Program-made: the position numbers and the translations under genes
The notes under the pieces: generated by a model
What the model was told of the DNA's origin: nothing
The model's database searches: none
What the model saw: the letters and a program-made list of their open reading frames with translations, nothing else
Part shown: positions 5,929 to 27,959 of the stretch, piece after piece
How positions within the stretch are numbered: the first letter of the stretch is position 1
Layout of the letters: each line of letters opens with the position of its first letter
From: a cyanobacterium endosymbiont of Epithemia turgida isolate EtSB Lake Yunoko
GTDB taxonomy: Bacteria; Cyanobacteriota; Cyanobacteriia; Cyanobacteriales; Microcystaceae
Direction of reading: 5' to 3'
Length of the DNA: 32,000 nt
Assembly: GCF_000829235.1 (NCBI RefSeq)
Contig: NZ_AP012549.1
Location: 2,430,001 to 2,462,000, forward strand

Positions 5929-6074
5929 CTTTTAAAAGTTACCTAAATTTCCTGGGGTAAGCAATACCTATCTCAGAAAATTTAGGTAGTTTAGTTATTA
6001 GTCCTTACAATTACAATCGTAATAATTTCCCGTCAACTTCTCTAACGGATAATCCTATATTTTAAGTAATTATA

Positions 6075-6248
6075 TCAAAGAGGGTGATATTTAGTATAAA
6101 TACTCTGAATAATACTAAGTAAATCTGGTGCTAACTCAGAGAAAGGGTTAGGCTTTAGTAAATCTAAAAGAGGCAATTGTTTTGTTGCTTGAGTGAAGTT
6201 TAGAATTTTTATAATATCTCCAATAATTCCTCCGATGATTATTTCCAT
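6075..6248 (-). CDS. Unannotated 57-aa ORF (MEIIIGGIIGDIIKILNFTQATKQLPLLDLLKPNPFSELAPDLLSIIQSIYTKYHPL), function unknown
   Basis: ATG at 6248 and TGA at 6075-6077, read by hand. It is just under the 60-aa track cutoff and is the only long open frame in the 1.46-kb desC-fmt spacer. I recognised no motif. Confidence 0.2.
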   Translation of the reverse strand: MEIIIGGIIGDIIKILNFTQATKQLPLLDLLKPNPFSELAPDLLSIIQSIYTKYHPL

Positions 6249-7392: not shown

Positions 7393-8388
7393 ATGCAGGT
7401 TATTTTTTTTGGAACCCCAAAATTTGCCATCGCTACGTTGCAACGGTTGCTAAATCATCCTGATTATAAAGTTATAGGAGTTGTTACTCAACCCGATAAA
7501 CGACGGGGACGGGGTAATCAATTAGTACCCTCTGCTGTCAAAAAAGTTGCTCTACAACATAATTTACTTCTCTGGCAACCTAAAAGAATCAGAAATGCGC
7601 AAAAGATCCTCTCTGAGCTTAGAGAAGCCCAGGCAGATGTCTTTGTTGTGGTGGCTTATGGACAAATATTATCCCCTGAGATCTTATCTATTCCTAAACG
7701 AGGCTGTATTAATGTTCACGGCTCAATTTTGCCCCAATATCGCGGAGCAGCTCCTATTCAGTGGGGTGTATATAACGGGGAACAACAAGTAGGGGTTACT
7801 ACTATGTTAATGAACGAAGGAATGGATACAGGAGATATATTGCTTAAATCTGTGAAATATATTGGATTATTAGATAATTGTCAGCAAATTACTGAAGAAC
7901 TAGCTCAAAATGGGGCAGATTTGTTGTTAAAAACCTTACAAAAACTAGAAGTTGGGGATATTATTGCCACTGCTCAAGATCCAACAGAAGCCACCTACGC
8001 TCCACTAATTCAAAAATCTGACTATAAGATTAATTGGTCTAGATCCGCAATCGCCGTTCATAACCAAGTACGGGGATTTTATCCTAATTGTATCACCAAT
8101 TTCCGTGACCAATCCCTGAAAGTTATGGCGACCATTCCGTTAGAAGATATTGATTGGGAGTCTTTACCCTCTGCGTTTCAACCCCTTCGGCAACAAGCAG
8201 CAAAATTACCAACTTTTAAAGGAACCCCAGGGGAAATCATGAGTAACATTAAAAATTTTGGACCTGTGGTACAGACAGGAGAAGGACTGCTTCTCTTAAA
8301 AGAAGTACAATTATCGGGAAAACGCCGTCAGTCAGGGTGGGATTTTTTAAATGGAACTCGTGTAAACGTGGGAGAAAAATTTTTTTAA
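7393..8388 (+). CDS. fmt: Methionyl-tRNA formyltransferase
   Basis: 331 aa with an ATG start. N-terminal FFGTP..A and HGSILPQYRGAAPIQ motifs plus a C-terminal Fmt domain. Confidence 0.9.
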   Translation: MQVIFFGTPKFAIATLQRLLNHPDYKVIGVVTQPDKRRGRGNQLVPSAVKKVALQHNLLLWQPKRIRNAQKILSELREAQADVFVVVAYGQILSPEILSIPKRGCINVHGSILPQYRGAAPIQWGVYNGEQQVGVTTMLMNEGMDTGDILLKSVKYIGLLDNCQQITEELAQNGADLLLKTLQKLEVGDIIATAQDPTEATYAPLIQKSDYKINWSRSAIAVHNQVRGFYPNCITNFRDQSLKVMATIPLEDIDWESLPSAFQPLRQQAAKLPTFKGTPGEIMSNIKNFGPVVQTGEGLLLLKEVQLSGKRRQSGWDFLNGTRVNVGEKFF

Positions 8389-8646
8389 CTAACTTTAGGA
8401 TGATTTATGGGCTTATATAAATAAGATCCCTTATAATGTTGGTTAGAATTTACTAAACAGCGCATTGTCTCTAAATAAGTTGTAATACAGTAAGGAATAT
8501 CTATAATTATCCAACGGACATTCAATATTTTTTTCTGAGGGGTTAAGTCAATTAGACATAAAAAAACTGTACTCAAAAACAGCCATCAACTTTGTATTAA
8601 TAATGATGATGGCGTTCAAGCACCATATAAATTTATCTTTTTAATT

Positions 8647-8695: not shown

Positions 8696-10377
8696 GGTTT
8701 GATGAGGATGGAGTAAGATTATCCTTATTGGTAAAGACTGTGTTTTCACTTTTGAGTGGCATTGGCTGACTATACTAGTTAATTATAGCGTTATCTTTTA
8801 GCTTTTTAATCAATCTAGCTCATATCGTGATCGCTTTTTTAAAACAATTATCATCTGTATAATTGCCATTAGATTTAAATTTAAATTAGATCAAAGTATT
8901 CTAATTAGTTTAGCTGATTCTACGGTTAAAAAATTTCGTTAAAGATAAATAAGTTTACTAAACCAAATCCTAAAATCGGAGCAGAAAGACTACTACTGCA
9001 GCCATAGTGTTTATGGCTCCATAGCCAGCGCTTAAAATAAACAGACTGACACTAAGGACATTTCCTATTGAGACTGCTAATCTTTTTCGAGACGACAGAC
9101 AGAATCTTGTAGGGGGATAATTCCTTTTTTTAGCGGATTTTTTTTTTATAAGTAACTATTGAATGATCGATAAAGTAAAAAGTAACTTTGAGAAAAGATA
9201 TTATGGTGAGTAATTAAGCCCGAAGGATACATTTTAAAACCTGAAACAAAATAATCTCTAACTAATAGAATAAAATAACCTCTCAACTACTTCTATCTGA
9301 AAAGACGAAGGGTAAGTGAACAGGAGTTAGATATTATTGACAGATAGACTTAAATATAATCTAGTCCAGAAACATAAAGGGATTGTAAAAAATAAAGGAT
9401 AAAAAATCAACAAAACAGAGGAGATTCTCAAAATAGGAGATAGCTATCGGTACTCTTATAAAGAAATTAATAGCTAAGGCTAAGTTCCATTATACTTGAT
9501 CACTGAATCTTAATGTTCGGACTTTAGCCGCTTATTCGAAATATTTGATAATTTATCTCATGACCAAAAATAAAGTTTCATAGTATAAACATCTAAAAAA
9601 TTACAGTTCTCAGTCAAAAAAGAAAAGTAACATTCAATTAAAAACTTAGAGATAAAGGAAAATAGGACGACAGTTTATTCAAAAGAGTTATATAAAGTCA
9701 AGGTTTTAAAAAATTTTTACAAATAATATTGTTATATTTTATTTTGCTAAGATTATCAAAACTTAAATAAAGCATTATATCTTAAACTTTACTGGCATCT
9801 TATTTTAAAGCAAAAGCTAACAGCTCAAACATAAAAACTATGTCACTGACAGAGAATAACACTAACTAAAATGTTCAATAAGTAGAAAAATTCGGTTGAA
9901 TAATATAAAGATTAGGTATTTTTTAAACATTGTAAAAACAATAAAGAATTGTTGTTTCTAATCAAACACTTAATCAAGTAGTACTGCTGACAGCATAAAT
10001 GACTAAATGCATTGTTGACAATTCTAGCAGGAGCTTAGACCTAATCAACATATTAAAACTTCAAGAAAACCCATAGCCAGTCATAGTTAAATATCCTAAC
10101 TTTGTTAAAGTGATTTCTCTTGCCTGATGGGGTTTCAAAACAGTATGTAAATATCCTGAAATACTATGTTTTTTACATTAATCAAAAACGATATTAACTG
10201 AAACAGATGAAAATAAAATAGGGAAGAAAATAGTTGTAATTCAAAACAAAATCTAAGCAGAAGAAGATTTCATCAAATGGTTAAGAATCATCGCTCCACA
10301 GTATAATAGAAAAACAAGCTCTTGTTATTTTGATAACAATATAAAAATATTTTTAAAAGCTTTAACTGACTGTCACA

Positions 10378-10471: not shown

Positions 10472-11002
10472 TTACTTCTTGGGGGTTAAGAACATCATCA
10501 TATTTCGTCCCTCCCGTTTAGGAATTTGTTGAATGTCAGCGATGTCTTTAAGATCTTGAGCCATACGGTCTAGTAAATTTAAGGCCAAATTGGAATGTTG
10601 AATTTCTCGACCTCGGAATGTAACCGTCGCTTTAACTTTGTCACCAGACTTAAGAAAACGTTTGGCTTGATTAATACGTACCATATAATCGCTTTCGCCG
10701 ATTTTATAACGCATCTTTACTTCCTTAACGTCGGCTGTATGCTGCTTTTTCTTGGCTTCTCTGGCTTTTTTCTCCTGTTCAAATTTATATTTGCCATAAT
10801 CCATGATTCGGCAGACAGGAGGTTTAGCAGTTTCACTCACCAAGACTAAATCAAGCTCCTTTTCTTGCGCGATGGTTAAGGCTTCATCAGGAGTCAGAAG
10901 ACCGACTTGTGCACCATCGCTATCGATGACTCGGATTTCAGGAAAACGAATTCTTTCGTTGATTTTGGGGAGATCCCGTTGAGGGCGTCTTTTATCTATC
11001 AC
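10472..11002 (-). CDS. infC: Translation initiation factor IF-3
   Basis: 176 aa. [37 protein letters not shown] and KEVKMRYKI are typical IF-3 N- and C-domain sequences. The called start is GTG (11002-11000) followed by ATA. Confidence 0.9.
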
Positions 11003-11187
11003 AGGCGTTTGTTGTTATATCTTAAATAGATGGACGAACTTAAGTGAATATAAATGAATAGGGTAACTAATTTCATTTTACTAACTTTTAACTAGGTTCT
11101 ATCTTAAATACGAATATTACTTTTTGTTTGTGATCATCTATCTCAAGATTGGGATTTGATTCACTCATGTCGATCATTATCCGATAA

Positions 11188-11239
11188 ATTTTAGATAGTA
11201 CACATTGACAAATTATGTCAAATGTGTACTATCTAAAAT
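11188..11239. promoter_or_regulatory. 52-bp near-perfect palindrome carrying a consensus TTGACA on each strand (candidate bidirectional promoter or operator)
   Basis: 23 bp pair (11188-11210 with 11216-11239), with one bulged A and a 5-nt loop aatta. Plus strand: TTGACA 11205-11210, N16, TACTAT 11227-11232. Minus strand: TTGACA 11221-11216, N15, TACTAT 11200-11195, pointing at infC 186 nt away. Confidence 0.45.
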
Positions 11240-12319
11240 AGATAAAGTAATCACTAGTAAAACCACGGTCAACCTCAAAAAATAGTTTCCTTTCAGTTTA
11301 ACACCAATTGTCCATTAACTCTTTAATCCTCATGAATTCTAATCGAATAAAAGCTCACAGAGCACTAAAAAAGTAAGTTAAGATCATCTCATATTTTTTA
11401 AGCAAGATTTTATCAGTTCCACATTATTACTTTAGGACTTAAGAGTAACATTCAGTAATTTAATTTTTCGACTGAAGAAATATATCTTTAGTAACTACAT
11501 TTAAGTTTAAGTCCTCAAAAGAATATAGTGTCGATTAGTATTATCTGTAATTTTTTTTAAAATTTTAATTTTCCCAAGCTCTTTGAAATAAATGATTATA
11601 TGATTTTCCTTTGTATCTAGACTTTCAACTGACTGTTACTCTTCTTTTTGGATTAAGAATTATCGATTTTAGCTATTCTTGTTTTCCCCTAATTTCTGGT
11701 TATTATATAAGCTCTTACATATATCATGCTGAACAAACAATTACAGCCTAAATATTGAGATTAAGAAATAAATATAAAAGTCTAAATGAAAATTGGACGT
11801 TTACTTCCTCATGATGATTCGGATCACTATCTCCTCTTTTCTGTTAATTTTTTTCTTTAGTTTCAGCAACCAGTTTATATTTCAACACATTTTATATTTA
11901 AGTTTTTCTGTCAATACATAATACCTAAAACTTATCAATGATTTTAATGGAAACTATTAAAAATCTTGACGATACCGGGTTTTATATTTTTTTCTGCTTA
12001 TCCTTAATGATTATTTTAGAATAAATCAATTTTTAGGATGTGTAACAGCAAGATTGGATTTAGCGCGGTTGGAAGATTCGATATACTTATTTTCGATCAA
12101 TGATAAATCAGTTAATATCTAAGTGAATAGACAAGAATATTTCTTAAAGACTATATGCTAAACAAAATATTACCTAGGAAGAGTTAGATAAGCTACAGTA
12201 TTATAAGTATTTTTTTCCTTTTTTTTGTGTGATGCATCAGAAATGTTTTTTTGTGTAACATGCTATGCTAACACACTATCTAGTTCTTTTAAGAAATACA
12301 ATTATACCGAACTGATGAT

Positions 12320-12372
12320 ATAAAATTAACCAGTAAAATTTAAAATCTGAGAATTTTACTGGTTAATTTTAT
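12320..12372. repeat. Inverted repeat, 21-bp perfect arms, 11-nt loop
   Basis: 12320-12340 (ataaaattaaccagtaaaatt) pairs perfectly with 12352-12372 (aattttactggttaattttat). It lies in the middle of the infC-msrA spacer. Confidence 0.75.
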
Positions 12373-13006
12373 GTAACCTATAGATCAATAATCTCTTTTT
12401 AAAATCAATTTTTATTTGTTGTTAATTACACTTTTATATGAAAAAATTACATATGGATATATTTGATAGATATTTTGGATATAAATAGTGAAGTTTTCTA
12501 TACTTGATTTAATACAACTTTTTTTTGCTTGACTATATTTTTCTGAAGTTAAATAAATATATTCTTTCTTAAGAGGGCTACAAACCAATTTTTAAAAATT
12601 TTAATTTGATTGTCTAGTTGACACGTATTTAGTTTGAACTACTAATTTATTGACAGTATTCTGATGAAATTTTTCAATATATATACTAATATTTATGATA
12701 ATTTTATTTTGATAGTTTAGTATATTTTTTATATTAAAAATACTTAATTTTTCTCTAAATTTATTTTCATATCATAGATATGTCAATATACTATGGAAAA
12801 TTTATGTATTTTAAATAAATAGCTGGTTTTAAGCTGATTTAAAAACTTAAAATCAAGCATAGTGTTATTATCATTTATTACTTATATTGTTCCCGTATAT
12901 CTTATAATATTAGCACATAATTCAATTGAGCAATAACACCTTTAGGTTTTTATTAAGCTTCTAAGTAGTCCAAATTACTAAAGGTCCTATGGTAATTAAC
13001 TAAATA

Positions 13007-13825: not shown

Positions 13826-14182
13826 AGTTTTTTACCTAAATAAATATCCTATTCTTATCTTAAATAGAAAAAATCGCTTCTTCAAAGTTATAGTTAATCA
13901 CTACCACATCCACCACATTTATTGTAACTACTGCTGCAACCATACTCTGAATCTACTCCCCTCTTAAGAGATAGCCAATTTCATCTACACGTTGTTTCTT
14001 CACTACTTAAACTTCCAAAATTAAAGAAATCACTAATATGAGTAACATAATATTCAGGACATTTTTTATATATTTCTTTTGAAGAAGTAGTATTTTTAGT
14101 GATCAAAACTTTTGCCCAGTAAACTAACTTATAAACTTATTTTATTTTCGGTTTAACTTGGATATAATTCTTTATAAGTTAT

Positions 14183-14238
14183 AATGATTCCTAGTATATA
14201 TAATTAATAATTATTAATTATATATACTAGGAATCATT
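14183..14238. repeat. 56-bp perfect palindrome with no loop (cruciform-capable)
   Basis: aatgattcctagtatatataattaataa | ttattaattatatatactaggaatcatt. Every one of the 28 pairs was checked. Only 8 of 56 positions are G/C. Confidence 0.9.
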
Positions 14239-14921
14239 GATTATATAACGTTATTATTGATTTTTATATTAAAACTAATTAATCAGTATTAATATTTATT
14301 TTCTATTTATAAAAAGATCAAAACTATTGTATTTATTCTATGATTTTCCTATAACTATCTGAGATATAAGTAAAATTTTTTTACCTTTACCTATTATTAC
14401 CCCTCAGTAAAAATTAAATCCGTTCCAGGAGTTTGTTCTCCTATGGCTGTGGCTTCGGTTTTAACCCTTCCTTTAACGCTTAGGAATCAAAGGTTAGCTT
14501 TCTTCCTATCCTTTACAGCTTAGAGGACTTAGAACAAACATTGGGGTGGGCTGATATAGTGCTGTTGTTAAAAGTTAGTTCGGTCTACTCCCAAGTGTGG
14601 TAAATTTTGCGACGGTTAAATTTATTAGAGCACGCTTGGGTGGTGGAACAGGCGACTCAATCGGATCAAGTCATTTATGATGAGTTGGAGGAGCAATCAA
14701 ACCTTCTACTTTCTTATTTTTCCTTTCTCCTTTCTCATTATTTACGTCAAGCCTAGCGATCTTCGCAACTCAATTTAACGTCCTATAAACCTTTTCTTTA
14801 TTAGGTTTTAGGATTTTAGCTAAAAAAATATAGCTTTTATTCCAGTCAAAATTATGTCAATTAACTGCCGACTTCGACAATAGTAAATATTGGATATCAT
14901 TAACTTTCTTGAGCAATTCCT

Positions 14922-15154
14922 ATGAGTGTTACTACCCTTCCTATCCTTAAGTCCTCTTTAAGATGTTCATCATATAATCAGTATTATCACTAATCAAGTC
15001 CGTCAACTTGTCAAAAAAGAAACGACGAGTCGTCATAAACCTAATTAATATCCTTTGCGAGTGTGTCTCCCCTCGTGAATGGGTATATGTGAAAACAGAA
15101 TTAGAAAGATATAATTATTTACTACGAGATCAAATCGGCAATCCGATTAAATAA
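14922..15154 (+). pseudogene. Frameshifted relic of a small (about 77 aa) unidentified protein
   Basis: ATG at 14922 opens MSVTTLPILKSSL. The protein-like reading continues only by changing frame twice: DVHHIISIITNQVRQLVKKETTSRHKPN*, then ILCECVSPREWVYVKTELERYNYLLRDQIGNPIK* ending at 15154. Local G+C is higher than in the surrounding spacer. Confidence 0.35.
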
Positions 15155-15974: not shown

Positions 15975-17459
15975 ATGTTAAACCCATTTGAGACAACTAC
16001 TATACTCTTGATCGTTTTGGTCGCCTCGGGGATTTTAACCTGGGGTTATAACAGAACTAAATTCTATGGTAAATCAGTAGTTTTTGCCGAGTTGCAGTCG
16101 TTAGCATTGATAGCTCCCTGGCTAGTATCTTTCGGGTTATTTGCTGCCGGAATTTATCTTAATTTAGTTACAATTTTATTGTTGTTGGTAACTTCATTAG
16201 GAGTATACATTTATTTAGGAAAAAAACTAAGAGCTGAAGGTCAAGACGTCATCCTAAAAAAAAAAGTCGCTGACGGTTTACAAGAACAATGTAAAGCTGA
16301 GAATTCTCAAGTCAATCAATCTGAAAGGACTCATCTTGATTCTAACCTGAAAATTGTAGCAGATACTCTACCTATTCCTAAAGAAGATCTTAGACTGATT
16401 AAAGGCATATTTGGCATTGATACATTTTTTGCGACTGAAACAATTTCTTATCAAGAGGGAGCAATTTTTAAAGGTAATTTACGAGGGGAACCTGACACAG
16501 TTTACCATCACCTTTCAGAAAAATTAAAAGCTCGTTTTTTTGATAAGTACCGTCTCTTTTTAGTAGAAGGAACAGAAAAAAAACCTGTAGTGATAGTGCT
16601 TCCAAGTATTGTTGATCCACGACCAACCACCTTAGTGCAGAAAAATATCGCTTTGGTCCTGTTTGTAGCAACTATTTTAACTAGTTTAGAAGCATCAGGA
16701 ATTCTGTTAGGATTCGATTTGTTCAGTAACTGGAGTCGTTATCTAGAAGTTATACCCCTTAGTTTAGGACTGTGGACAGTTTTAATTGCCCATGAGATTA
16801 GTCATCGTCTTCTTGCAAAACATCACAATGTGCGCCTGAGTGTTCCATTTTTTCTTCCCACCTGGCAAATTGGATCGTTTGGGGCAATTACTCACTTTGA
16901 ATCCTTACTGCCTAACCGAAATGTCTTATTTGATATGGCTTTTGCTGGCTCTGCTGCAGGATGGGGATTTTCTTTAGTATTGCTGACGGTTGGATTGGTA
17001 TTGTCTCATCCAGGAAGTTTGTTTCAAGTACCTACTCAGTTTTTTCAAGGCTCAATTTTAGTTGGCAGTTTAGCTCGGGTGGTGTTCGGAGAAGAACTAC
17101 AAAAATCGCTAATCGATGTTCATCCATTAGCGATTATAGGATGGTTAGGATTAGTTATTAATGCTCTTAATTTGCTTCCTGCGGGTCAGTTAGATGGGGG
17201 ACGAATTGTTCAGGCAATTTATGGAAGAAAAACTGCAAGGAAGACTACAATAGTGTCCTTAATTGTCTTAGGAATTGTAACATTAATTAACCCCCAAAAT
17301 TCTCTTCCTCTTTATTGGGTAATTGTGATTCTTTTTCTCCGACGAGACTTAGAAAGACCAAGTTTAAATGAGTTAACTGAACCTGATGATACCCGTGCTG
17401 CGTTGGGTTTATTAATCATATTTCTTATGTTAATGACTTTAATTCCTTGGTTTTTCTAG
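15975..17459 (+). CDS. M50 site-2 protease family membrane metalloprotease (EGY-like)
   Basis: 494 aa and polytopic. It has an HExxH motif (AHEISHRL) and a second metal-ligand motif NLLPAGQLDGG. Confidence 0.85.
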   Translation: MLNPFETTTILLIVLVASGILTWGYNRTKFYGKSVVFAELQSLALIAPWLVSFGLFAAGIYLNLVTILLLLVTSLGVYIYLGKKLRAEGQDVILKKKVADGLQEQCKAENSQVNQSERTHLDSNLKIVADTLPIPKEDLRLIKGIFGIDTFFATETISYQEGAIFKGNLRGEPDTVYHHLSEKLKARFFDKYRLFLVEGTEKKPVVIVLPSIVDPRPTTLVQKNIALVLFVATILTSLEASGILLGFDLFSNWSRYLEVIPLSLGLWTVLIAHEISHRLLAKHHNVRLSVPFFLPTWQIGSFGAITHFESLLPNRNVLFDMAFAGSAAGWGFSLVLLTVGLVLSHPGSLFQVPTQFFQGSILVGSLARVVFGEELQKSLIDVHPLAIIGWLGLVINALNLLPAGQLDGGRIVQAIYGRKTARKTTIVSLIVLGIVTLINPQNSLPLYWVIVILFLRRDLERPSLNELTEPDDTRAALGLLIIFLMLMTLIPWFF

Positions 17460-18320
17460 CCTACCTATAATAAGGTAAAAATCGATGGATATTAAAAATT
17501 TTATTTTACAAGGTTACCAACTTTGCGAATACTTAATTTTTATAGAATTAGATTTTTATAAATCTATAACACAATTATAATAGAAATTATAAAAATCATC
17601 AGCTGCTAATTTATCAAACCCAGTATAGAATAGTTAACTCCTTTAAGTTTTAGCTAGGAAACAAAAAAAATAGTAGCTATGAAGATTAATTTGTTGATTA
17701 CTATCAAGCTAAAATCATGAACTCTTATATACAGTTGCCATTTTATAAATTTTTATTTAATACTATTTTTTATTTAAAACTATTATCTTTCTATATATAT
17801 CCAGTTCTGGACCATAAATAAAAAAAATAGATAAAATTATTTATTTTTTTAGAGTTTTAGTTCGGCTTTAACTATACCACTTGTATATACTTGGTTATTA
17901 TCAAAAAATAATGACTTGATTTATTTCTTTTCAGAATATGGTGACTACTTGTGCTTACTTTTATTTTCGTTGTTAGAAAAATTTTTTGTCTGCAAGTCAA
18001 CCTCAATAACAAGTCAAGCTCAATAATTTTTACTCTCTTTAAACTATGTCATTATTGCTTACTTATTTAAGCTTATTGAGCTTAATATTATATTAAGAAC
18101 TATTAATCTATTTATTTTTTAAAAGTGGGATAACAAACTAACAGTTGACGCATGACAACCTAATTAGTGTCTTTTAAAATAAAAAATCTCTATTTTAAAA
18201 CTCGTAACAATTATCTATTCCATCATCATAAATTTAAACAATCCTGAAACCTAAAGTTTTTATTGATTAGTATTGTAGTCATAGTATTACTGGAAATTGC
18301 AGTTTTTGTATTTATATCTT

Positions 18321-19118
18321 TCATCTCGATGGTTGTATTTCTGAAAAATGTGGATACTTTATATAGAATCCAGTCAAAATCAATAAAATAATGCCAATAG
18401 TTCCAATTCCCAAATAACTAGGAACCCAAAAAGAGGCTTCAATAGTATTGATTTGACCAGGTTTTAATTCCCAAATAATCTGATGTTTTTTTTGCTTAAA
18501 AGAGGTATTACTAACAATATTTTTAAGTCCAAAAGGAGCTTTTAGAATAAATTCTAAGTCTACTAATGATCCTGTACTAAGAATAACATTGCCCTGACTC
18601 GATAAAATTCCTAACGCTCGTAAATCTACTTCTAGATTAAGTAAATTATGTTCTATAAATAGCCAATTATCTTGTTTTAAAGACATTTTGGCTTTAAGGT
18701 TCACTAAATCTGAATCGTTGTCCTTAAGAGACTGAGTTTTTCTAGACGTAGGAAAATTTAAAAATTTATTGAATTTCTCAATCAGTTCTTTACCATTCCC
18801 GAAAGGAATTTTGACAATAATCTCTCGGGGAGATATCCGTTTAGCTTTTCCTTGAAGATTTTCTGCCCGTTTTTCAAGGCTGTCTAACCATTTATTCACT
18901 TCCGTTTGACTTAAGTTAGTTAACTGTTCAGTCAAGCTAATATGTTGTACAATTTCTCCTCGATGTTGTTGAAAAAAATCTACACTTACACCATAGTGAA
19001 CACACCCACTTAATAGGGTTAATAAACTAATGACTAGAGGCGTTAAAAAAAACCTTAACAAACCACTAAATGCCTGATTTTTACTTTTTTTATTGAAATA
19101 CTGTTCTTGATTTTTCAC
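18321..19118 (-). CDS. Conserved cyanobacterial lipoprotein with C-terminal TM anchor (tentatively DUF3153-like)
   Basis: 265 aa. It has a lipobox LLSGC after a hydrophobic segment and a C-terminal TM (LGIGTIGIILLILTGFYI). The start is GTG, 26 nt after the stop of the RNB gene, so they are probably co-transcribed. The family name is from memory only. Confidence 0.6.
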   Translation of the reverse strand: MKNQEQYFNKKSKNQAFSGLLRFFLTPLVISLLTLLSGCVHYGVSVDFFQQHRGEIVQHISLTEQLTNLSQTEVNKWLDSLEKRAENLQGKAKRISPREIIVKIPFGNGKELIEKFNKFLNFPTSRKTQSLKDNDSDLVNLKAKMSLKQDNWLFIEHNLLNLEVDLRALGILSSQGNVILSTGSLVDLEFILKAPFGLKNIVSNTSFKQKKHQIIWELKPGQINTIEASFWVPSYLGIGTIGIILLILTGFYIKYPHFSEIQPSR

Positions 19119-19144
19119 GGTTAACCATTAACTTTTAACTAAAA

Positions 19145-21400
19145 TTAGTCATCGTCCCAATCATCATTTCTAGCGAAGCTTCCACCCCCGACAGTTACTA
19201 AATCAATCTGCTGGCGATAATAATCTACACTTTTTACCTCTACTTCAACTTCATCGCCTAAACGATAAGCAATGCGATTTTTTCGTCCCACTAAACAACC
19301 ATGACGAGCGCGATATTCATACCAATCATCTTTTAAAGAACTAACATGAACTAGTCCTTCCACCAATAGGTCTTCAATTTCGACAAAGAAGCCATAAGAT
19401 TGAACTCCCGTAATCAACCCTCGAAAAACTTGGCCAGTGCGTTCTTTCATTTTTTCAGCTTTCTTCAAGCCATCGAGATCTTTTTCTGCGTCTTCAGCTA
19501 ACTTTTCACGGTCGTTAAGATGAGAAACTAAAATGTGAAATTCTTCTTCAAGACTTTCTTGTATAGCAGGGGGTAAAACATTCCAGTTAATATCAATATG
19601 ACAACGACTGCTGTGGAGATCTACCCCTGTTTTAGTCTGTTTGGTACGACGATCACGCCCTTCACTGAATAATAACTTAATCATACGTTGTACTAATAAA
19701 TCTCCATATCTTTGACCAGGAGAAACACAATGAGTATAACAGTCATGATAAGCTAAGCCGAAATGGGGAGCCGAATGACTGCTGTATTTAGCAGATTTTA
19801 GGGTATCTTTCAAAAGAAAATTTAACACCCGCACCGATGAACATTGATTAAATCCTCGAGTCAAATTGTAATAATCTTGAGCGGTAATCTCCTCTTCGGA
19901 AGACAGTTGTATATCTATTCCTAAATTATCTACCAGTTTCAGTAAATCTTCTAATTCTTCCCAATCAGGCTCAGGTTGAGCACAATAAAGGGAAGGAATT
20001 CCTAAAGCGTAAAGATGATCCGCTACCGATTTTCCTGCTAGGATTATCAACTCCATCAACAGCGAGCGCACAGGAACCTTCGATGAAGCAATAATGACTC
20101 CTAAACGTCCTTCATCTTGATAAGGTGATCGCGGCTCTAACTGTAGTTCAAACCCTCCTCGTTGCAACCGTTGTGCTTTAACTAAGGGACTAAGAGTCAA
20201 AAATAGTTGCTTAAGACATTGAGCTAATTCTTCTTGTTCGGCAGACAGCTGGTCAAAATGGGTTAATAACCCTTGAGCTTCTTGGTAGGTCAGTTGTTCA
20301 TTAACATTAATAACTGTTGGGTGAATTTCGAATTCAGTCATTTGACCATTTTTATCAAAGGTAATTAACACTGAGATGGTTAAACAATCCTTTTCTGGGA
20401 CAATACAACAACAGTCAGTTAAAGCCTTTGGCAATAAGGGAAGGACTTTGTCACCTAGATAAATCGTTGTCCCTCGTTTTTTTGCCGTTTTATCGAGGAG
20501 CGAATCAGGGGTAACATAATGGGCAACATCAGTAATATGAACACCTAATTGCCAGTACTGATCGGGAATTTGTTCAAGCGTAAAAGCTGTTTCAACAAAA
20601 GGAGGGTGGTCTCGTTGCTCATCTTCAACAAAGGTAAACGTAAACTTTTGACGTAAATCAACCCGCCTATCAATTTCAGCTCGATCAACAGTTTTTGGTA
20701 AAGCTTCCGCCAGTCGTTCCACCGCTTCGGGGAAAATTTGGGGCAAATCGTGTTTACAACAGACGATATCTGTATCAGCAGCTTCTTCGGCATCACTTCC
20801 TAAAATGCGGGTAATAGTTCCCCAGGGGGGATGTTCTCCAATCGGATAGCGTATTACCGAGACGTGAACTAAATGGTTGACTGCTTGTTCTAAACTATTC
20901 TCCTCATTCTGTTTAAGTAGAAGTTCAAATAATAAGCGATCATCGAGAGGAATCGCTTTATAATCTCCATTATCTTTTTTTACTTGAGCAAGTAAAGATG
21001 GATTTGCCCGTTCCAAAATCAGTTTAACTTCTCCTTCTGGAGAACGACGACGAGTGCCTTCTTTAATCACTTTGACAAGGACGCGGTCACTGTTCCACGC
21101 ATTGCTAAGATGGGTTTCTCGTATATAGATATCATCAGCGTCTTCTTCATCTTGAATCGCAAAACAAAAACCTTTGCTTGAACAACGTAATTTAGCTTCA
21201 ACCAGATTTTTCTCAATAGAACGGCGATATTTTCCTCTCTCCTTAACTAAAACTCCGATTTTTTCTAGAATATCTAAAATTATTTGGAGCTTTTCGATGC
21301 TTTCTTCATCTTCACACCCCAACTTTTTCTCCAGAAATTTAGCCGCAACTAATTTGTCATCTGTAAAATTGGACAAAAGTGTAGCGATTGAAAATTCCAT
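19145..21400 (-). CDS. RNase II/R family protein (RNB domain plus C-terminal S1 domain) with non-canonical catalytic motifs
   Basis: 751 aa with an ATG start. RNB landmarks are present: HITDVAHYV, RGTTIYLGDKVLPLLP, HFGLA and a C-terminal S1 fold (GLITGVQSYGFFVEI). Motif I reads TFVEDEQRDHPPFVETA and motif IV reads YTHCVSPGQRYGDLLVQR, in place of the canonical TIDxxxxxDxDDA and YxHFTSPIRRYxDLxxHR. Confidence 0.8.
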   Translation of the reverse strand: MEFSIATLLSNFTDDKLVAAKFLEKKLGCEDEESIEKLQIILDILEKIGVLVKERGKYRRSIEKNLVEAKLRCSSKGFCFAIQDEEDADDIYIRETHLSNAWNSDRVLVKVIKEGTRRRSPEGEVKLILERANPSLLAQVKKDNGDYKAIPLDDRLLFELLLKQNEENSLEQAVNHLVHVSVIRYPIGEHPPWGTITRILGSDAEEAADTDIVCCKHDLPQIFPEAVERLAEALPKTVDRAEIDRRVDLRQKFTFTFVEDEQRDHPPFVETAFTLEQIPDQYWQLGVHITDVAHYVTPDSLLDKTAKKRGTTIYLGDKVLPLLPKALTDCCCIVPEKDCLTISVLITFDKNGQMTEFEIHPTVINVNEQLTYQEAQGLLTHFDQLSAEQEELAQCLKQLFLTLSPLVKAQRLQRGGFELQLEPRSPYQDEGRLGVIIASSKVPVRSLLMELIILAGKSVADHLYALGIPSLYCAQPEPDWEELEDLLKLVDNLGIDIQLSSEEEITAQDYYNLTRGFNQCSSVRVLNFLLKDTLKSAKYSSHSAPHFGLAYHDCYTHCVSPGQRYGDLLVQRMIKLLFSEGRDRRTKQTKTGVDLHSSRCHIDINWNVLPPAIQESLEEEFHILVSHLNDREKLAEDAEKDLDGLKKAEKMKERTGQVFRGLITGVQSYGFFVEIEDLLVEGLVHVSSLKDDWYEYRARHGCLVGRKNRIAYRLGDEVEVEVKSVDYYRQQIDLVTVGGGSFARNDDWDDD

Positions 21401-22669
21401 TTACCTATTAATCTTCCTTACTAAATGTGAGTGGATCTTATTGGTGGCTGGAATCATAGAAGAGTAGTTGCTCGACAGCTCCCTAAACTGTTACGTCTTC
21501 TATACCCAACACCATGAAGAAAGAACTTTTCTTTCTTCAATGAGGAGATTGCCTAGTTAGGGAGCTTAGCTAACTAAGATTGTGGCTCAGTTAAGTGATT
21601 ACTGTCTTTATTCTGTCTTCATTCTTAAGATTTTAATCTTTAGAATGGCTAAGTTAGCTTTCCTAATTATACCTCTGTTTACAATCGAGAAGCGACCCTT
21701 GATATATCTGGATTTGCCGCATTATTTATTGCTGGAGCTCTAATCCATATTAGCAGTGAAGTTGCTCCTAGGAATCTTTGATTTTGTACTTGAAAAGTAG
21801 TGTCCTACGAGAACAGGGTGAGAGTTGTATTATCTAATGAGAAGGACTACTTTCATTGGAAGTCAACTCTGTCGAAAATGATTGTAAAGAACTAATTCGT
21901 GAACACTTCCCTTTCACAAACTTATCCGGATTTTAATTTTACCAAGGTAACGTGATACTTACGAGGTTTGTCTTTGACAAAAGTGAAAGTAAATGTTGAT
22001 TTTTATCTCATTTTAGATTCCTCTAACAAGTTGCGTAAGCCCACAGCGCAGCCTTTCATGTCAAACCATAAGACTTTACTACTTCACTAACTTTGTTCAT
22101 ATAGAAAATGTTGCCATTTATTCACCTCTATCCAGATATTTATAAAATTAGCGTTAACGACTATCCATCAACTGTAAATGTATTGTTTTTTTACTATCAG
22201 AAAAGCTTTTCTACTAGTTTTAAACTTTTTAGTGTTTTTGATTGTCTGGCAAAACCCAGGCACCTTTATCTTCAACAGCTAGGGCAATGGGGTTCGTTCT
22301 TTAATTTTCTAGCTCGTTTCTAGGTGTCGATTAGACTTCATTTTATCTTCTTTTCTAGCTTCATCGTCAAGCCTTGAGCACATTTTTATCCTGATATCGC
22401 AGGTATATTTCCCTACGGCTCGATACGTTCCGTTCGTTTATAACATAGGGCTTACCAACATTATGAGAGATAGGTTTACCCGGATATAGAAATCTCTTTT
22501 CAAGAGCAATATAAAATATTTCCACAAAAAGGAATTCTAAACTTCACGAATCCATAAAATCAAGATGTGTTTATATTTGACTTGTTTTTCTCCAATACTT
22601 TCCTACCTTTATTTACTAATAAAGTACAAATAAACTTAATAAAAATAGTAGCGAGTAGCTCAAAAAATT

Positions 22670-23397
22670 ATGTTGACTCAATTCAGAATTCTTTATCCTC
22701 AAGGCGGTGTAATCAGTGAATTAGTAGCAATTGATCACAGAAAGTATAAGTTAAAAACCATGAACCATTTTTTTCTTCTAAGGTTCCGAACATTTCGGTA
22801 GTTGATCAAACCTACTCTAAAACACCGTTACCGGAGTAACAAGTTCCAGTTGCGACTTCTGTCAAAGTCCCCTAAACGCCAGAGGCGAGCTCCTCTGAAC
22901 CATCAGCTTTTGCTGAAAAAACTACAAGCCAATCTTGAAGCCAAGTATTATATATTTCTAACATCAATGAAATCATAATTGAACCAGTGGAGAAAGTTTT
23001 CCTCAAACCCTCCTTAGTAGAAGAAAATTATACTAATCATAATGATAAATTAGCTGAACCGATGTAAGAGGTTTCCTTAAGCTCTTCTAAAATACAAGAA
23101 ACATTTATTTCAACACCAGAGATAGGCAAAATTTCAATGCCAACGACTATCATACGCCAAGAGCTTCCAGACGTATCTTCTTCGAAAGAAAAATCTCCCC
23201 TAACGAAAATTGAAGAACCTCTTGAGTTTTCGGAAATTATTGCCCGTTCTAATACAGAAATCAAGTGTTTAGGCTAGACACAAGTGCAAGGACGCGAATA
23301 TTTGATTCAAACTTATGGAAATCAATCACGTTAAGTTCTTTCTAATGAGGAGCTCATCGAATTTCTTTATTACCTCCAAAGTTTACCAACTTCTTAA
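22670..23397 (+). pseudogene. Pseudogene of a conserved cyanobacterial hypothetical protein
   Basis: It starts MLTQFRILYPQGGVISELVAIDH. After stops and frame changes comes a P/S/T-rich linker. The C-terminal module reads EEPLEFSEIIARSNTEIKCLG*TQVQGREYLIQTYGNQSR*VLSNEELIEFLYYLQSLPTS*. TAG at 23275 sits where I expect a conserved Trp, and TAA at 23332 where I expect Gln. The total length is not a multiple of 3. Confidence 0.7.
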
Positions 23398-23470
23398 CTT
23401 TTCCTGAAAATCGAGGGAAAGAATTACTTTTAAAAATAAATCAGTAACGCTTGCTAGCTAAACTAATTTA

Positions 23471-23495
23471 GGGGTTAACCGTCGCCGTTGACCCC
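23471..23495. terminator. Hairpin between the convergent pseudogene and clpP (candidate bidirectional terminator)
   Basis: ggggttaac cgtcgcc gttgacccc forms a 9-bp stem with one wobble and is G+C-rich against an AT-rich background. It starts 25 nt after the clpP stop. The flanking T-runs are weak. Confidence 0.5.
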
Positions 23496-23519
23496 TACCT
23501 TGGGTTTTACCCTAATTTC

Positions 23520-24128
23520 CTAATTAACAGTAGGAGGAGGATTGCTAGCCGAAGGACGACGGTTAATCACTTGGTCAATCAATCCATATTTTTGAGATTC
23601 TTCAGCGGACATGAAAAAGTCTCGTTCCGTATCTTGAGAGATTTGCTCAAGGGGCTTTCCTGTGTGATGTGCTAAGTGATTATTGAGGAGTTGCTTTAGA
23701 TAAAGAATCTCTCTAGCTTGAATTTCAATATCTGTGGCTTGTCCCTGGGCGCCTCCGAGAGGTTGGTGAATCATAATACGAGAGTTAGGCAAGCTCATCC
23801 TTTTTCCTTTAGCTCCTGCACTGAGAAGGAAAGCTCCCATGCTAGCAGCTAACCCAATGCAGATTGTAGAGACATCAGGACGGATTTGGTTCATAGTATC
23901 AAAAATTCCTAGTCCTGCTGACACAGACCCCCCTGGAGAGTTGATATAAAGATAAATGTCTTTTTCTGGATCTTCTGCTTCGAGGAATAATAACTGAGCA
24001 ACGATAAGGTTAGCATTTTCATCTCTGACCTCTTGTCCCAAAAAAACAATGCGTTCGCGTAACAGACGAGAGTAAATATCAAATGCGCGTTCACCACGCC
24101 CAGAAGTTTCAATAACGGTAGGAATCAT
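23520..24128 (-). CDS. clpP: ATP-dependent Clp protease proteolytic subunit
   Basis: 202 aa with an ATG start. Ser-His-Asp triad contexts are intact ([29 protein letters not shown]). The N-terminus reads [19 protein letters not shown]. Confidence 0.92.
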
Positions 24129-24703
24129 AAAGTCTCTATTTTTTGGTGTCTTCCTTTTGATTTTAGCGAGTTTGTTCGTGTGTTGAACCTCCTATTTTTT
24201 AAACGATACATTAACAAGTTTTATCGAATACGCTTTATACTGCGACAAGCTACAGTTAAAATATACTAATAATGTCAAGTCAAACTATATTTATATTCAT
24301 TTAAAATTCTACTTAATTTACTTGTATATTCATAACTCAGAAAGTTATAAGTCTTGATTATAGTTAATATAGGGCTAGTGCGTTATTCGATGAAGTGCTC
24401 AACAAAAACGCAAAGTAGCGTGTCGAGAACTATAATAAATAACATTGGGGTTTAGTCAATAATTTTATAGAAGAAAAGACTTTTATCTTTAAATAATCAA
24501 ATAAATATCCTTCGCTTATGACGTTTGTCGAGTTTACTCTGTATCCAGACTAATTGCTGTTTTGGCTTTAATCCCTTAATCTTCGCCTTGACTATAAATC
24601 AGCTGATAAGTACAAAGTTTCTGGTGTTTGTAAAACTCCCGACAAAACTTCATAATTGGAACCAATAGAAACGATATCAACAAGCTTACTCGGTTATGCA
24701 GTT

Positions 24704-24742
24704 TTTTCGTTGTGATTGTAACTTTGAAAATCACAACGAAAA
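24704..24742. repeat. Inverted repeat, 14-bp perfect arms, 11-nt loop
   Basis: ttttcgttgtgatt (24704-24717) pairs with aatcacaacgaaaa (24729-24742). It lies about 180 nt upstream of the M16 pseudogene. There is no U-tail in either orientation. Confidence 0.7.
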
Positions 24743-24924
24743 CCGCCCTTATTTAACTAATCTTTTAGTTAGAGCTAACATTATTAAAATTAGATAAACT
24801 ATTTTTAGGGTAATACACTTTTACTTTTGACATTGAGTGAGCGATATAGCTCCCTGATTCTACCGAGCCCAAAAAGTTTAATATTTATATAAATGTAACC
24901 GTTATTTAAAAATCACTTATTACT

Positions 24925-26219
24925 TTGACTTTGCTTAAAACCTCAGCGTTCAATGTTTCCACAATCCATATTCTTTCCAATGGGTTGACCATCATGGCTG
25001 AACAAATGCCAGTTAAAGTGATCAATTTAAACCTCTGGTTAAAAGTAATATCTACGTTGTAATTCAATTATCTTAATGGGATAGCGTATTTATTAGAATA
25101 TATGATTTTCAAAGGAATCTCTCACCTCAAAAGGAGAGAATTTGAACGATTACTTGAATAACAAGGAGCACTGACCAATGCAGCGACTCTCCAAGAGAGT
25201 ACTTATTACTACATCAATTGTGTGCTCCAAAATTTCAAAGACCTTGCCCCATTGCAATTAGATGTGATCTTTAATCCTAATATTGCTGATGAGGCATTTG
25301 AACGAGAACGGTTAGTAGTTTTAGAAGAAATCCACTGGTCGAATGATAATTCTCGTCTTGGGACTTTTTACAGGGCGATGGAGCCCTGTTTTAAGATTTT
25401 GCCCTATTGTCGTCGCGTGCTAAAACCAGCATCCACCATTAAAGGATTAATTGCCCAACAAATGCGAGACTTTCACAAAACTTAGTATCAACTTGAATTG
25501 GTAATAGCACTGACAGTAGGTAATCTTTCTGTAGAAATGTTAATTTACATTTTAGCGACGAGTTTGAGTCAAACCTGTAAGTATTCTAGAATTAAGCCCC
25601 AAAATAAGCAAAAGAGAAAAGAGGTTAAGTTTTTATTTAAAGTTTCTTTTGCTAGAATTGTGCGTCGGGAATTTGATGATTCCAGTGTACGGTAATCTCG
25701 CTTAATAATGATGTGGCAAGTTCCTGAGTTAGTTAAATTAGATAGAATCTATGCTTTGAATGTATTAGCAGTTATTTTAGGGCAGAGAAAAATCTCGCGA
25801 TTATGTCGGGATTTACGCGAAGACAAGAAGTTAGTTTCCCGTATTAACGTTAACAATATAACCCCCAAAATTTAAGACATATTTTATATATTAGCTCAAT
25901 GACTATCAGAAAATGTTCTGGAGGTGGAACGAATTATCATTGAGTAAATTACCAATATCAGGCAAATATCAGTGATTGAAACTGAATTGAATTGTGTACG
26001 AATTCAGGTAGCTAATCGGTTTGTATTTAGTAGTGAAAGTCCGAGCAATCGTACTCATCTTTATGGGGATTATTATTCTCAGTTACAGTATTTGGAATCA
26101 GCTTTGATCTATCCAATCGTATACAAGCTCTGAGTTTAGAAAATATCCAAGAAGCTGCTTTTGATTATTTGTCTTCTAAAAACTATAGGATTAAGGGAGT
26201 ACATTCTACTCATAAATAA
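24925..26219 (+). pseudogene. Pseudogene of an M16 (pitrilysin-family) zinc peptidase / processing protease
   Basis: A single frame from 24925 reads LTLLKTSAFNVSTIHILSNGLTIMAEQMPV...NGIAYLLEYMIFKG...LVVLEEI...QQMRDFHKT*YQ... There are in-frame stops at 25060, 25159, 25483, 25693, 25873, 25900 and 25945, and one frameshift near 26100. The natural TAA is at 26217-26219. The expected zinc motif HxxEH is YLLEY (TAT at 25087 and 25099). Track ORFs 25222..25485 and 25498..25695 are fragments of it. Confidence 0.85.
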
Positions 26220-26239
26220 TTATTAATTACTAAACAAAA

Positions 26240-27109
26240 ATGTGGACACAAATTGCTCAACATATTTCTCAGGCTACTCAACAGGAGTTTCGGACTAAAA
26301 ACCGACGTTCTGTTAATGGAGGTTGTATCAATCAATGTTACTCCTTAATTGGGGATAACATTACCTATTTTGTTAAAATCAACCAAGCTTCCCAGGTAGA
26401 AATGTTTGCGGCTGAAGCATTGGGTTTAAAACAGATATCAAACACTAAGACCATTCGTGTTCCTCAACCAATTTGTTGGGGAATAGCAGAAAAAACTAGT
26501 TACATTGTACTTGAATGGATGAAATTTGGTCGAGGGACTAATCAATTTTGGGAGGAGATGGGACGTAAATTGGGGACGATGCATCACCATCAAGGGGCTG
26601 ATCAATTTGGTTGGGAACAAAACAATACGATTGGTTCTATCTCTCAGATAAATATTTGGACTGATAGTTGGGCAGATTTTTTTGCAGAATACCGTATTGG
26701 TTATCAATTGAAGTTGGCAAGACGACGTGGGGGAAATTTTCCTGACTGTACTCAAGTTGTGGAAATGGTTAGGGAATTATTAGCCCATAGACAACCTAAA
26801 CCTTCTTTGGTACACGGGGATTTGTGGTCAGGAAATGTAGCGGTAACTCAGGAAGGAGAACCGGTTATTTTAGATCCTGCTACTTATTATGGCGATCATG
26901 AAGTTGATCTAGCGATTACAGAACTGTTTGGAGGATTTGGGCGTGGATTTTATAGAAGCTATAATGAAGTTTTTCCTTTAGAAAAAGGTTATCAAAAACG
27001 AAAAATGATTTATAATCTTTATCATATTATAAATCATTTTAATTTATTTGGAGGTGGATATAGAGCCCAGGTTAATCAAATGATTCAGAGAATTATAACT
27101 AATGGATAA
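26240..27109 (+). CDS. Fructosamine/ketosamine-3-kinase family protein
   Basis: 289 aa with an ATG start. It has the kinase motif LVHGDLWSGN, DPATYYGDHEVDLA and an N-terminal NGGCINQCY. It starts 20 nt after the stop of the M16 pseudogene. Confidence 0.85.
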   Translation: MWTQIAQHISQATQQEFRTKNRRSVNGGCINQCYSLIGDNITYFVKINQASQVEMFAAEALGLKQISNTKTIRVPQPICWGIAEKTSYIVLEWMKFGRGTNQFWEEMGRKLGTMHHHQGADQFGWEQNNTIGSISQINIWTDSWADFFAEYRIGYQLKLARRRGGNFPDCTQVVEMVRELLAHRQPKPSLVHGDLWSGNVAVTQEGEPVILDPATYYGDHEVDLAITELFGGFGRGFYRSYNEVFPLEKGYQKRKMIYNLYHIINHFNLFGGGYRAQVNQMIQRIITNG

Positions 27110-27170
27110 TGCTGAGATACTGAAAGTGTATACCCAAATTGAGGGCGATAGGTTACCTTATTATTAACTA

Positions 27171-27605
27171 TTATTTGGATTGACAATAACTATTTATTCT
27201 ATTTCCCAATTCTGGTTCTTTTTGACCTAATTGTTGCAGTTGCTGTTGCATCAACTTAACTGTGTTGATATCCTTTTTTTGTAATGCGAATATGAACTGC
27301 CGAGTTGTTTGAGCGTATCCTTGGTAAATATTAGCAAATTCTAGCTGATATTTAACTAAATTTTTATCATAAATAGATAGATTTCTCATCTCAGCTGCTG
27401 CTTTTTCAAAAGAGTCAGCCACTTGTAATGCTTTTTGGATATCTTCTGTTTTACGATTAGCGTGGCTTTCTTTAGCGATTGCTTGAGTAATTGAGATTAT
27501 TTTTTTACATTGAAAGACTCTATTTTCAGAACAACTAACTAAAATTATATTCGGCAAAATAATTAACAATAGAGCGATTATAAAAATTTTTTTAAAAAAA
27601 GTCAT
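27171..27605 (-). CDS. Orphan helical lipoprotein, function unknown
   Basis: 144 aa with an ATG start. It has a signal peptide with lipobox LVSC, and the remainder is helical and Q/K-rich. It lies 5 nt downstream of the preceding small ORF. Confidence 0.6.
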   Translation of the reverse strand: MTFFKKIFIIALLLIILPNIILVSCSENRVFQCKKIISITQAIAKESHANRKTEDIQKALQVADSFEKAAAEMRNLSIYDKNLVKYQLEFANIYQGYAQTTRQFIFALQKKDINTVKLMQQQLQQLGQKEPELGNRINSYCQSK

Positions 27606-27610
27606 TGTAA

Positions 27611-27892
27611 CTAATTAGAAGAAGTAGTACTGTTTACTAAAGTTCGGAGAATATTAGTTAGTTGAGTCAACTGCTCGTTTGATTCACTTTGCTTATCTAT
27701 TAAGGTTTGTATAGATTCAGTTAAAATAAATATTTGATATCTCTGCTGTTGTATTTGATTTTTTTGTCGTTCTATTTTTTTAGATACATCATTTATTTTT
27801 TTAGCTAATTCTTCTACTGTATTTGTAGTTGCAATTATGGCTTCTCCTATATTTTTTATGATGTTGGTTAATTGCTCAGTTTGATCACTCAT
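27611..27892 (-). CDS. Orphan 93-aa coiled-coil protein, function unknown
   Basis: The track calls GTG at 27910. I prefer ATG at 27892, which has AAGGA (27907-27903) 10 nt upstream. The GTG codon lies inside the 60-bp palindrome. The sequence is heptad-like and Q/E/K/I-rich. Confidence 0.5.
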   Translation of the reverse strand: MSDQTEQLTNIIKNIGEAIIATTNTVEELAKKINDVSKKIERQKNQIQQQRYQIFILTESIQTLIDKQSESNEQLTQLTNILRTLVNSTTSSN

Positions 27893-27899
27893 TATATTG

Positions 27900-27959
27900 T
27901 TTTCCTTCACAAAGCACCGATATTATTATATAATAATATCGGTGCTTTGTGAAGGAAAA
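27900..27959. promoter_or_regulatory. 60-bp perfect palindrome encoding mirror-image sigma70-type promoters (TTCACA-N17-TATAAT on both strands)
   Basis: All 30 pairs were checked (ttttccttcacaaagcaccgatattattat | ataataatatcggtgctttgtgaaggaaaa). Minus strand: -35 at 27953-27948 and -10 at 27930-27925. Plus strand: -35 at 27906-27911 and -10 at 27929-27934. The left arm contains the AAGGA ribosome-binding site of the downstream small ORF. Confidence 0.55.

Follow-up and report, generated by a model that had tools for sequence, protein, structure and literature searches.

The genome of the nitrogen-fixing cyanobacterial endosymbiont (spheroid body) of the rhopalodiacean diatom Epithemia turgida carries, directly upstream of an intact fructosamine-kinase-family gene, a region that reads as an M16 zinc peptidase and is interrupted by seven in-frame stop codons. 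The first-pass annotation regarded it as a freshly dead gene. Whether it is a dead gene at all, when it died, what its lesions tell us about mutation in this lineage, and how the kinase gene behind it is still expressed are the questions that this locus raises. Here, we analysed the whole 32,000-nt stretch of DNA in which the region lies (hereafter, the window) together with the corresponding loci of related genomes.

Identity and lesions of the M16 remnant

The remnant occupies window positions 24919-26219 on the forward strand and represents a full-length M16B zinc peptidase, with 1301 nt compared with 1302 nt in intact genes. Its M16-like translation runs in frame 1 from 24925, seven in-frame stops precede the change of frame, and the final 35 codons are read in frame 3, ending at the TAA at 26217-26219. 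With the stops masked, the conceptual translation matched the Pfam families Peptidase_M16 (PF00675, 3.4e-16) and Peptidase_M16_C (PF05193, 4.2e-15). This architecture, PF00675 followed by PF05193 over about 430 aa, is that of subfamily M16B, and the alignment to 433-aa orthologues extended over the full length. The nearest homologues were intact 433-aa proteins of other diatom endosymbionts (67-71% identity), with the Rhopalodia sterrenbergii endosymbiont (71%) and the R. musculus endosymbiont (70%) giving the best protein matches; the identity to the intact orthologue P0001 was 71% at the amino acid level. M16 homologues of the free-living Rippkaea and Crocosphaera followed behind these endosymbiont matches, at 50-56% identity. 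The closest solved structure was 3amj_C (2.8e-44), the active subunit of the heterodimeric M16B enzyme of Sphingomonas A1, and further structure matches were other bacterial "processing proteases". A search of the intact orthologue against NCBIfam gave no equivalog above cut-off and no specific name, and no second M16 match was found in the 32-kb window. We therefore assign the region, with good confidence, to a unitary pseudogene of an M16B (pitrilysin/insulinase family) peptidase that was single-copy at this locus.

The lesions were polarised against intact orthologues, with parsimony applied to every column of the M16 alignment. The features of the dead gene are as follows:

24919..26219, + strand: M16B zinc-peptidase pseudogene, from ancestral start to stop (Pfam, synteny, dN/dS 1.08)
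24919..24921, + strand: lost start codon, ATG to ATT, window-specific (ATG in all nine other sequences)
25060..25062, + strand: stop 1, GAA to TAA, codon 48, window-specific (polarised alignment)
25087..25101, + strand: former HxxEH, now YLLEY, through CAT to TAT at 25087-25089 and 25099-25101, window-specific (orthologue alignment)
25159..25161, + strand: stop 2, GAA to TAA, codon 81, window-specific (polarised alignment)
25483..25485, + strand: stop 3, TGG to TAG, codon 189, common to the R. gibba endosymbiont pseudogene
25693..25695, + strand: stop 4, CAA to TAA, codon 259, window-specific (polarised alignment)
25873..25875, + strand: stop 5, CAA to TAA, codon 319, window-specific (polarised alignment)
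25900..25902, + strand: stop 6, TTA to TGA, codon 328, window-specific, AT-to-GC direction (polarised alignment)
25945..25947, + strand: stop 7, CAG to TAA by two changes, codon 343, window-specific (polarised alignment)
between 26116 and 26117, + strand: single 1-bp deletion (frameshift), codon 400 (alignment to intact genes)
26217..26219, + strand: ancestral TAA stop, aligned with the stop of the orthologues

The initial call of an M16 zinc peptidase pseudogene is thus borne out by the Pfam domains, by seven in-frame stops, all of which could be located and polarised, and by one frameshift; the latter, originally placed near 26100, is the 1-bp deletion at codon 400. Among the proposed origins of the stops, GAA to TAA twice, TGG to TAG and CAA to TAA were right, but the list was incomplete, missing TTA to TGA and the two-step change of CAG to TAA. 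The start of the gene also had to be moved from 24925 to the ancestral start at 24919, which is itself mutated. Of the 11 disabling changes, 10 are base substitutions and not homopolymer indels; the GC-to-AT direction was likewise found in 10 of the 11. The TAG at codon 189 (TAG189) is the only disabling lesion common to the window and R. gibba copies. With its start codon gone, seven stops and one frameshift, the remnant offers no translatable ORF. It descends from a member of the M16 family, is not a functional member and has no protein function.

Could the gene be truly intact and only appear broken through an error of sequencing or assembly? An independent Logan assembly of run SRR29904087 was 100.000% identical to the window over 11,690 nt (window 16240-27929), the whole remnant included, which excludes an assembly error. 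Together with the type of the lesions, nearly all of them substitutions and not homopolymer indels, and with the copy of the sister genome, which is likewise dead, this effectively refutes the idea. In addition, a dN/dS of 1.08 with 95 non-synonymous changes, and the loss of both the active site and the start codon, would not be expected of an intact gene. We give this explanation next to no probability.

The former zinc site deserves separate consideration. The window motif GIAYLLEYMIFKG aligned to GMAHFLEHMVFKG of the intact orthologues, which carry CAT at both codons, confirming that both zinc-ligand histidines became tyrosine through C-to-T changes. Searching the window copy for the inverted zinc motif H-x-x-E-H returned Y-L-L-E-Y in its place, and the dead R. 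gibba endosymbiont copy has kept HFLEH. Tyrosine at both ligand positions could in principle mark a functional but inactive M16 subunit, comparable to MPP-alpha, a bc1 core protein or the inactive partner of an M16B heterodimer, or the gene might be expressed by read-through of its stops or with an altered genetic code. M16 families do include inactive subunits lacking HxxEH, and the closest structure, 3amj_C, is the active half of a heterodimeric M16B enzyme. The first-pass annotation had itself named an inactive subunit class as the alternative to decay, and we examined it among the homologues. H-x-x-E-H was present in 119 of 120 of them (114 HFLEH and 5 HYLEH, with one unmatched by the pattern), and, apart from the one unmatched sequence, none of the 120 had tyrosine at the zinc-ligand positions; the motif is also retained in all orthologues. 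An altered code or read-through is hard to reconcile with TAA, TAG and TGA all occurring in the remnant, whereas the flanking genes are clean in the standard code. The frameshift, the lost start codon, the dN/dS of 1.08 and the replacement of conserved sites at the background rate speak against a retained protein of any kind. An inactive M16 subunit would need an intact, selected ORF without HxxEH and orthologues that likewise lack the motif, and here the ORF is broken and the orthologues have the motif; decay stands, and an inactive subunit is hardly credible.

The two histidine changes are later than the death of the gene: both are window-specific, and the dead R. gibba copy still reads HFLEH. 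HxxEH was thus present in the ancestor and disappeared after gene death, making the His-to-Tyr changes consequences of decay and not its cause. In the relic of the E. pelagica endosymbiont, the first zinc-ligand histidine is again tyrosine (AYFMKH), a recurrence that simply reflects the dominant C-to-T mutation.

Relatives and time of death

To place the loss in time, we compared the locus across related genomes. Gene order was identical in every endosymbiont locus compared: M50 peptidase, DUF3153, RNase R, Slr1353_N, ClpP (minus strand), M16 and kinase, followed by two small ORFs, an epimerase and SulP. In all of them, the M16 copy is flanked by ClpP and the kinase, the position that marks the dead copy as a unitary pseudogene. 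Seven further spheroid-body or related assemblies carry an intact M16 with HFLEH at the corresponding place, namely the endosymbionts of R. gibberula, R. sterrenbergii, R. musculus and E. clementina and three additional assemblies, each with a 1302-nt gene. The free-living relative SU2 carried an intact M16 of 1299 nt. Three genomes had dead copies, namely the window and the endosymbionts of R. gibba and E. pelagica. The R. gibba endosymbiont copy (L002:8676-9980) is 1305 nt long and contains a 4-bp insertion, a 1-bp deletion and eight ancestral-frame stops, and these indels and stops differ from those of the window, TAG189 excepted. The GC content of both dead copies was 34.7-34.8%, compared with 38-39.6% in intact endosymbiont copies. 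In the E. pelagica endosymbiont (L004:3360-3987, NZ_OX373462), about 630 nt of M16 remain recognisable, with stops present, and ClpP and the kinase lie about 570-670 nt closer together than in loci with a full-length M16, intact or dead.

On the other side of ClpP, we also observed a second pseudogene at window 22507-23391 (+), a Slr1353_N-domain homologue with 10 in-frame stops and 49% identity. Other endosymbiont loci carry this Slr1353_N-domain gene in intact form (279-314 aa).

In a neighbour-joining tree of seven flanking genes (7.6 kb), the window was sister to the R. gibba endosymbiont in 100 of 100 bootstraps, and the E. pelagica endosymbiont formed the deepest branch. Given this deepest position, the E. 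pelagica endosymbiont lost its M16 gene independently. On the window branch, the remnant acquired 126 substitutions and one indel (S=25, N=95; dS 0.088, dN 0.096), resulting in a dN/dS of 1.08, and the R. gibba branch, with 89 substitutions and two indels (dS 0.064, dN 0.069), gave the same value of 1.08. As controls, the flanking genes on the window branch had a dN/dS of 0.23 (dS 0.076, dN 0.018), and intact M16 branches ranged from 0.15 to 0.28. The window-branch changes were distributed over codon positions 1/2/3 as 58/31/37, and they were evenly spread along the remnant (chi-square p=0.80). With 0.097 changes per site compared with a flanking dS of 0.076, the remnant behaves as expected under neutral evolution. 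Replacements at positions at least 90% conserved made up 45-53% on the dead branches, close to the background of 47%, whereas the value for intact branches was 21%. Both copies have thus been neutral for practically all of the time after the two lineages split.

The description of the gene as freshly dead therefore cannot be maintained: the R. gibba copy is also dead and carries TAG189, the window copy has a dN/dS of 1.08, and its divergence is about that of flanking dS. Because the sister copy is dead too and the window branch shows this dN/dS, the gene has been dead at least since the clade split. The split between the window and R. gibba lineages lies at about 40% of the sampled endosymbiont crown depth (0.068 vs 0.167 in flanking-gene distances), and, if a clock is assumed, the age of the relic is probably on the order of ten million years.

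We next consider the stem shared by the two lineages. The M16 stem carries 33 shared derived changes, compared with 6.4 expected through parallelism, including G320E at a 100%-conserved site and M55I adjoining the zinc site. Its dN/dS is 0.52 (dS 0.039, dN 0.020), compared with 0.15 for the flanking genes on the same stem (dS 0.038, dN 0.006). Non-synonymous stem changes numbered 20, while about 12 would be expected from selection plus parallelism, a modest signal (Poisson p about 0.02, a hand calculation). In our reading, the gene quite probably died a single time, before the window and R. gibba lineages split and on their short shared stem; our candidate for the first lesion is TGG to TAG at codon 189.

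This single death has to be weighed against two independent deaths very soon after the split, with TAG189 arising twice by a parallel G-to-A mutation. Given the observed mutation spectra, the chance that at least one identical nonsense hit arose independently in the two copies is appreciable (P about 0.4), and every disabling lesion other than TAG189 is lineage-specific. Only 5 of the 20 stem replacements (25%) fall at highly conserved sites, near the pattern of intact branches, and the E. pelagica endosymbiont is a witness that independent loss does occur. However, both terminal branches have a dN/dS of 1.08 and total rates at least as high as flanking dS, so that neither branch can accommodate a time of function, the dN/dS of the stem (0.52) is above the controls at 0.15-0.22, and the shared derived changes are far in excess of the parallel expectation. 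We thus regard two deaths as unlikely; "freshly dead" is wrong whether the gene died once before the split or twice immediately after it.

A dense patch of stem changes was observed at window 25852-25891, where S312N, M314I, G320E, M321I and S325L lie within 14 codons. Four of these five are at positions at least 91% conserved, and this is the densest decay patch held in common with R. gibba.

Under the preferred reading of a single death, gene death would have occurred once, on the stem to the common ancestor with the R. gibba endosymbiont, with TAG189 as the candidate first lesion. Both copies would afterwards have drifted neutrally under AT-biased, transition-rich and indel-poor mutation, and the window lineage would then have acquired a further six stops, a mutated start codon, both His-to-Tyr changes and one 1-bp deletion.

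Mutation spectrum and indel deficit

The polarised changes of the window branch give a local mutation spectrum. In all, 78 changes ran from GC to AT and 39 from AT to GC. Scaled to the available sites, these are 0.159 and 0.048, a 3.3-fold bias that agrees with the G/C-to-A/T direction claimed at first pass. Transitions (80) outnumbered transversions (46). The predicted equilibrium GC was about 23%, near the 22.6-28% of the window's most AT-rich stretches without ORFs.

The window as a whole has 33.9% GC; ORFs of at least 90 aa cover 49% of it, and the remainder has 29.5% GC. Several of the 1-kb segments at 6001-7000, 9001-10000, 11001-13000, 14001-15000 and 17001-19000 have 22.6-29.6% GC and are mostly without long ORFs. 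These AT-rich, ORF-poor stretches are probably older and more decayed relics that are near the mutational GC equilibrium. Across the entire window, neither a match to an Rfam family nor a tRNA was found.

Substitutions exceed indels in the remnant, as had been claimed, with a ratio of 126:1 on the window branch. The further claim that this excess offers a direct readout of the mutational regime did not survive comparison with neighbouring DNA. Between the window and R. gibba, the remnant differs by 210 substitutions and 3 indels (70:1), whereas 4.6 kb of adjacent non-coding DNA differ by 620 substitutions and 40 indels (15.5:1). The 3 indels compare with about 13.5 expected (Poisson p for at most 3 of about 7e-4, a hand calculation on one gene), so that indels per substitution are 4-5 times fewer in the remnant than in adjacent non-coding DNA, contrary to what strict neutrality predicts. 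The ratio of 126:1 is not representative of the mutational regime. Homopolymer runs of at least 5 occur in the remnant at 3.8 per kb, with none of at least 6, which is the lowest density in the locus, and this low density probably explains part of the indel deficit. In both dead lineages, full length (1301 and 1305 nt of 1302) has been kept since before the split.

If the deficit were real and general for DNA that was formerly coding, it would point to a constraint on length or continuity of the transcribed relic ahead of the kinase, or to indels in spheroid bodies being nearly confined to AT-rich, run-rich, old non-coding DNA. We consider this a long shot. Were it true that indels are so confined, it would help to explain how spheroid-body genomes remain large and stable at a low coding density.

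The downstream kinase and known systems

The fructosamine-kinase-family gene downstream is intact and begins at the ATG at 26240, 20 nt past the dead gene, as described at first pass. The features relevant to its expression are as follows:

24751..24918, + strand: block preceding the dead gene that aligns among five endosymbiont genomes, a candidate for the retained operon promoter or leader
26220..26239, + strand: spacer of 20 nt to the kinase (20 nt in nearly all intact loci; 24 nt in L025)
26240..27109, + strand: intact fructosamine-kinase-family gene (PF03881, 7e-120; dN/dS 0.32 on the window branch)

The conserved spacing suggests that M16 and the kinase ancestrally formed a two-gene operon. 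After the death of M16, the kinase evolved with dN/dS values of 0.32 in the window lineage and 0.25 in the R. gibba lineage, both in the range of purifying selection, and it is therefore expressed. Premature stop codons terminate translation, not transcription. Cyanobacteria are not known to have the Rho factor that would cause nonsense polarity, and such polarity is accordingly not expected. The claim that the kinase must now rely on read-through or a new promoter was therefore overstated, given that stops spare transcription and the kinase is still under selection. Most simply, transcription of the kinase probably still starts at the old operon promoter and runs through the relic. The relic would in that case form a 1.3-kb untranslated leader of a functional kinase, with the old operon promoter driving both. 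The locus is not mentioned in the text examined from the transcriptome study of the R. gibba endosymbiont.

Over the 168 nt that precede position 24919, the window-specific rate was 0.053 per site, compared with 0.097 in the remnant, corresponding to 8 changes against about 15 expected, a weak signal. No convincing sigma-70 consensus was found in the upstream block 24751-24918. A perfect 14-bp hairpin (TTTTCGTTGTGATT / AATCACAACGAAAA) was observed at window 24704-24742 (z = -3.8), about 176 nt upstream of the start of the dead gene; it delimits the conserved block on its upstream side and has no T-run after it. At the same place, the R. gibba endosymbiont has a 13-bp hairpin with a different stem sequence and the R. 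gibberula endosymbiont a weaker one. The ClpP-M16 intergenic region of R. gibba (L002 ~8365-8440) also contains about three tandem copies of a unit of about 22 nt, GTTCGTTTTTGGTATTTATCAA, and no comparable array was found here in the window or in the other genomes.

Alternatively, the remnant might be kept for a non-coding role in kinase expression, as a leader, a spacing element or a new internal promoter. The indel deficit relative to neighbouring non-coding DNA and the continued selection on the kinase are in line with such a role, as is a sigma-70-like site inside the relic at window 25564-25592 (+), TTGAGT-17-TAGAAT, both hexamers of which were brought nearer to consensus by window-specific substitutions. 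However, promoter-like sites numbered 12 in the region against 9.0 +/- 2.6 in shuffled sequences, and, with such sites no commoner than in shuffles, we set this one aside as evidence for a promoter. The substitution rate is neutral and uniform, and we found no constrained island or hidden kinase promoter within the remnant, its last 40-150 nt being no slower than the rest; the scarcity of homopolymer runs also offers a mutational explanation for the few indels. Furthermore, most of M16 is deleted in the E. pelagica endosymbiont and the kinase there is still intact, so the relic DNA is not needed as such. A retained non-coding role is in our judgement very unlikely, and we prefer transcription from the old operon promoter through a neutral relic.

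The properties of this locus can be compared with published systems. Spheroid-body (diazoplast) genomes have 33.4-35.3% GC, 0.58-0.68 genes per kb and 99-286 predicted pseudogenes, and they combine an absence of transposases and high synteny with lineage-specific sets of dead genes (Nakayama & Inagaki 2017, PMC5638926; Abresch et al. 2024, PMC11131595; Abresch et al. 2026, preprint, 10.64898/2026.03.19.712447). The window is alike in its ORF coverage of 49%, the 29.5% GC of its remainder and the second pseudogene adjoining the first, and it shows no difference in kind from other Rhopalodiaceae spheroid-body pseudogenes. The M16 remnant is an ordinary pseudogene, and the pseudogene load, AT bias, synteny and slow DNA loss of spheroid bodies are already published. 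M16 peptidase is unmentioned in the spheroid-body genome literature examined, and the words 'peptidase' and 'protease' do not occur in PMC5638926. The details added here are that the death can be dated to the stem shared by two clades and that the E. pelagica endosymbiont lost its copy independently. Their value is modest: the relic serves as a well-polarised neutral marker that gives a local mutation spectrum, and TAG189 is a candidate shared lesion for the clade of Epithemia s.str. and R. gibba-like diatoms. The independent discard of the gene in the marine E. pelagica endosymbiont suggests that the peptidase is dispensable inside the host.

Compared with bacterial M16B peptidases such as those of Sphingomonas sp. 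A1 (3amj_C) and Bacillus halodurans BH2405 (3hdi), the ancestral gene was alike, with PF00675 and PF05193 and, in its intact orthologues, HxxEH and about 430 residues; unlike them, the window copy cannot make protein. [quoted passage not shown] However, that set required at least three indels per pseudogene, whereas the window copy has one per 126 substitutions and was disabled mostly by nonsense hits.
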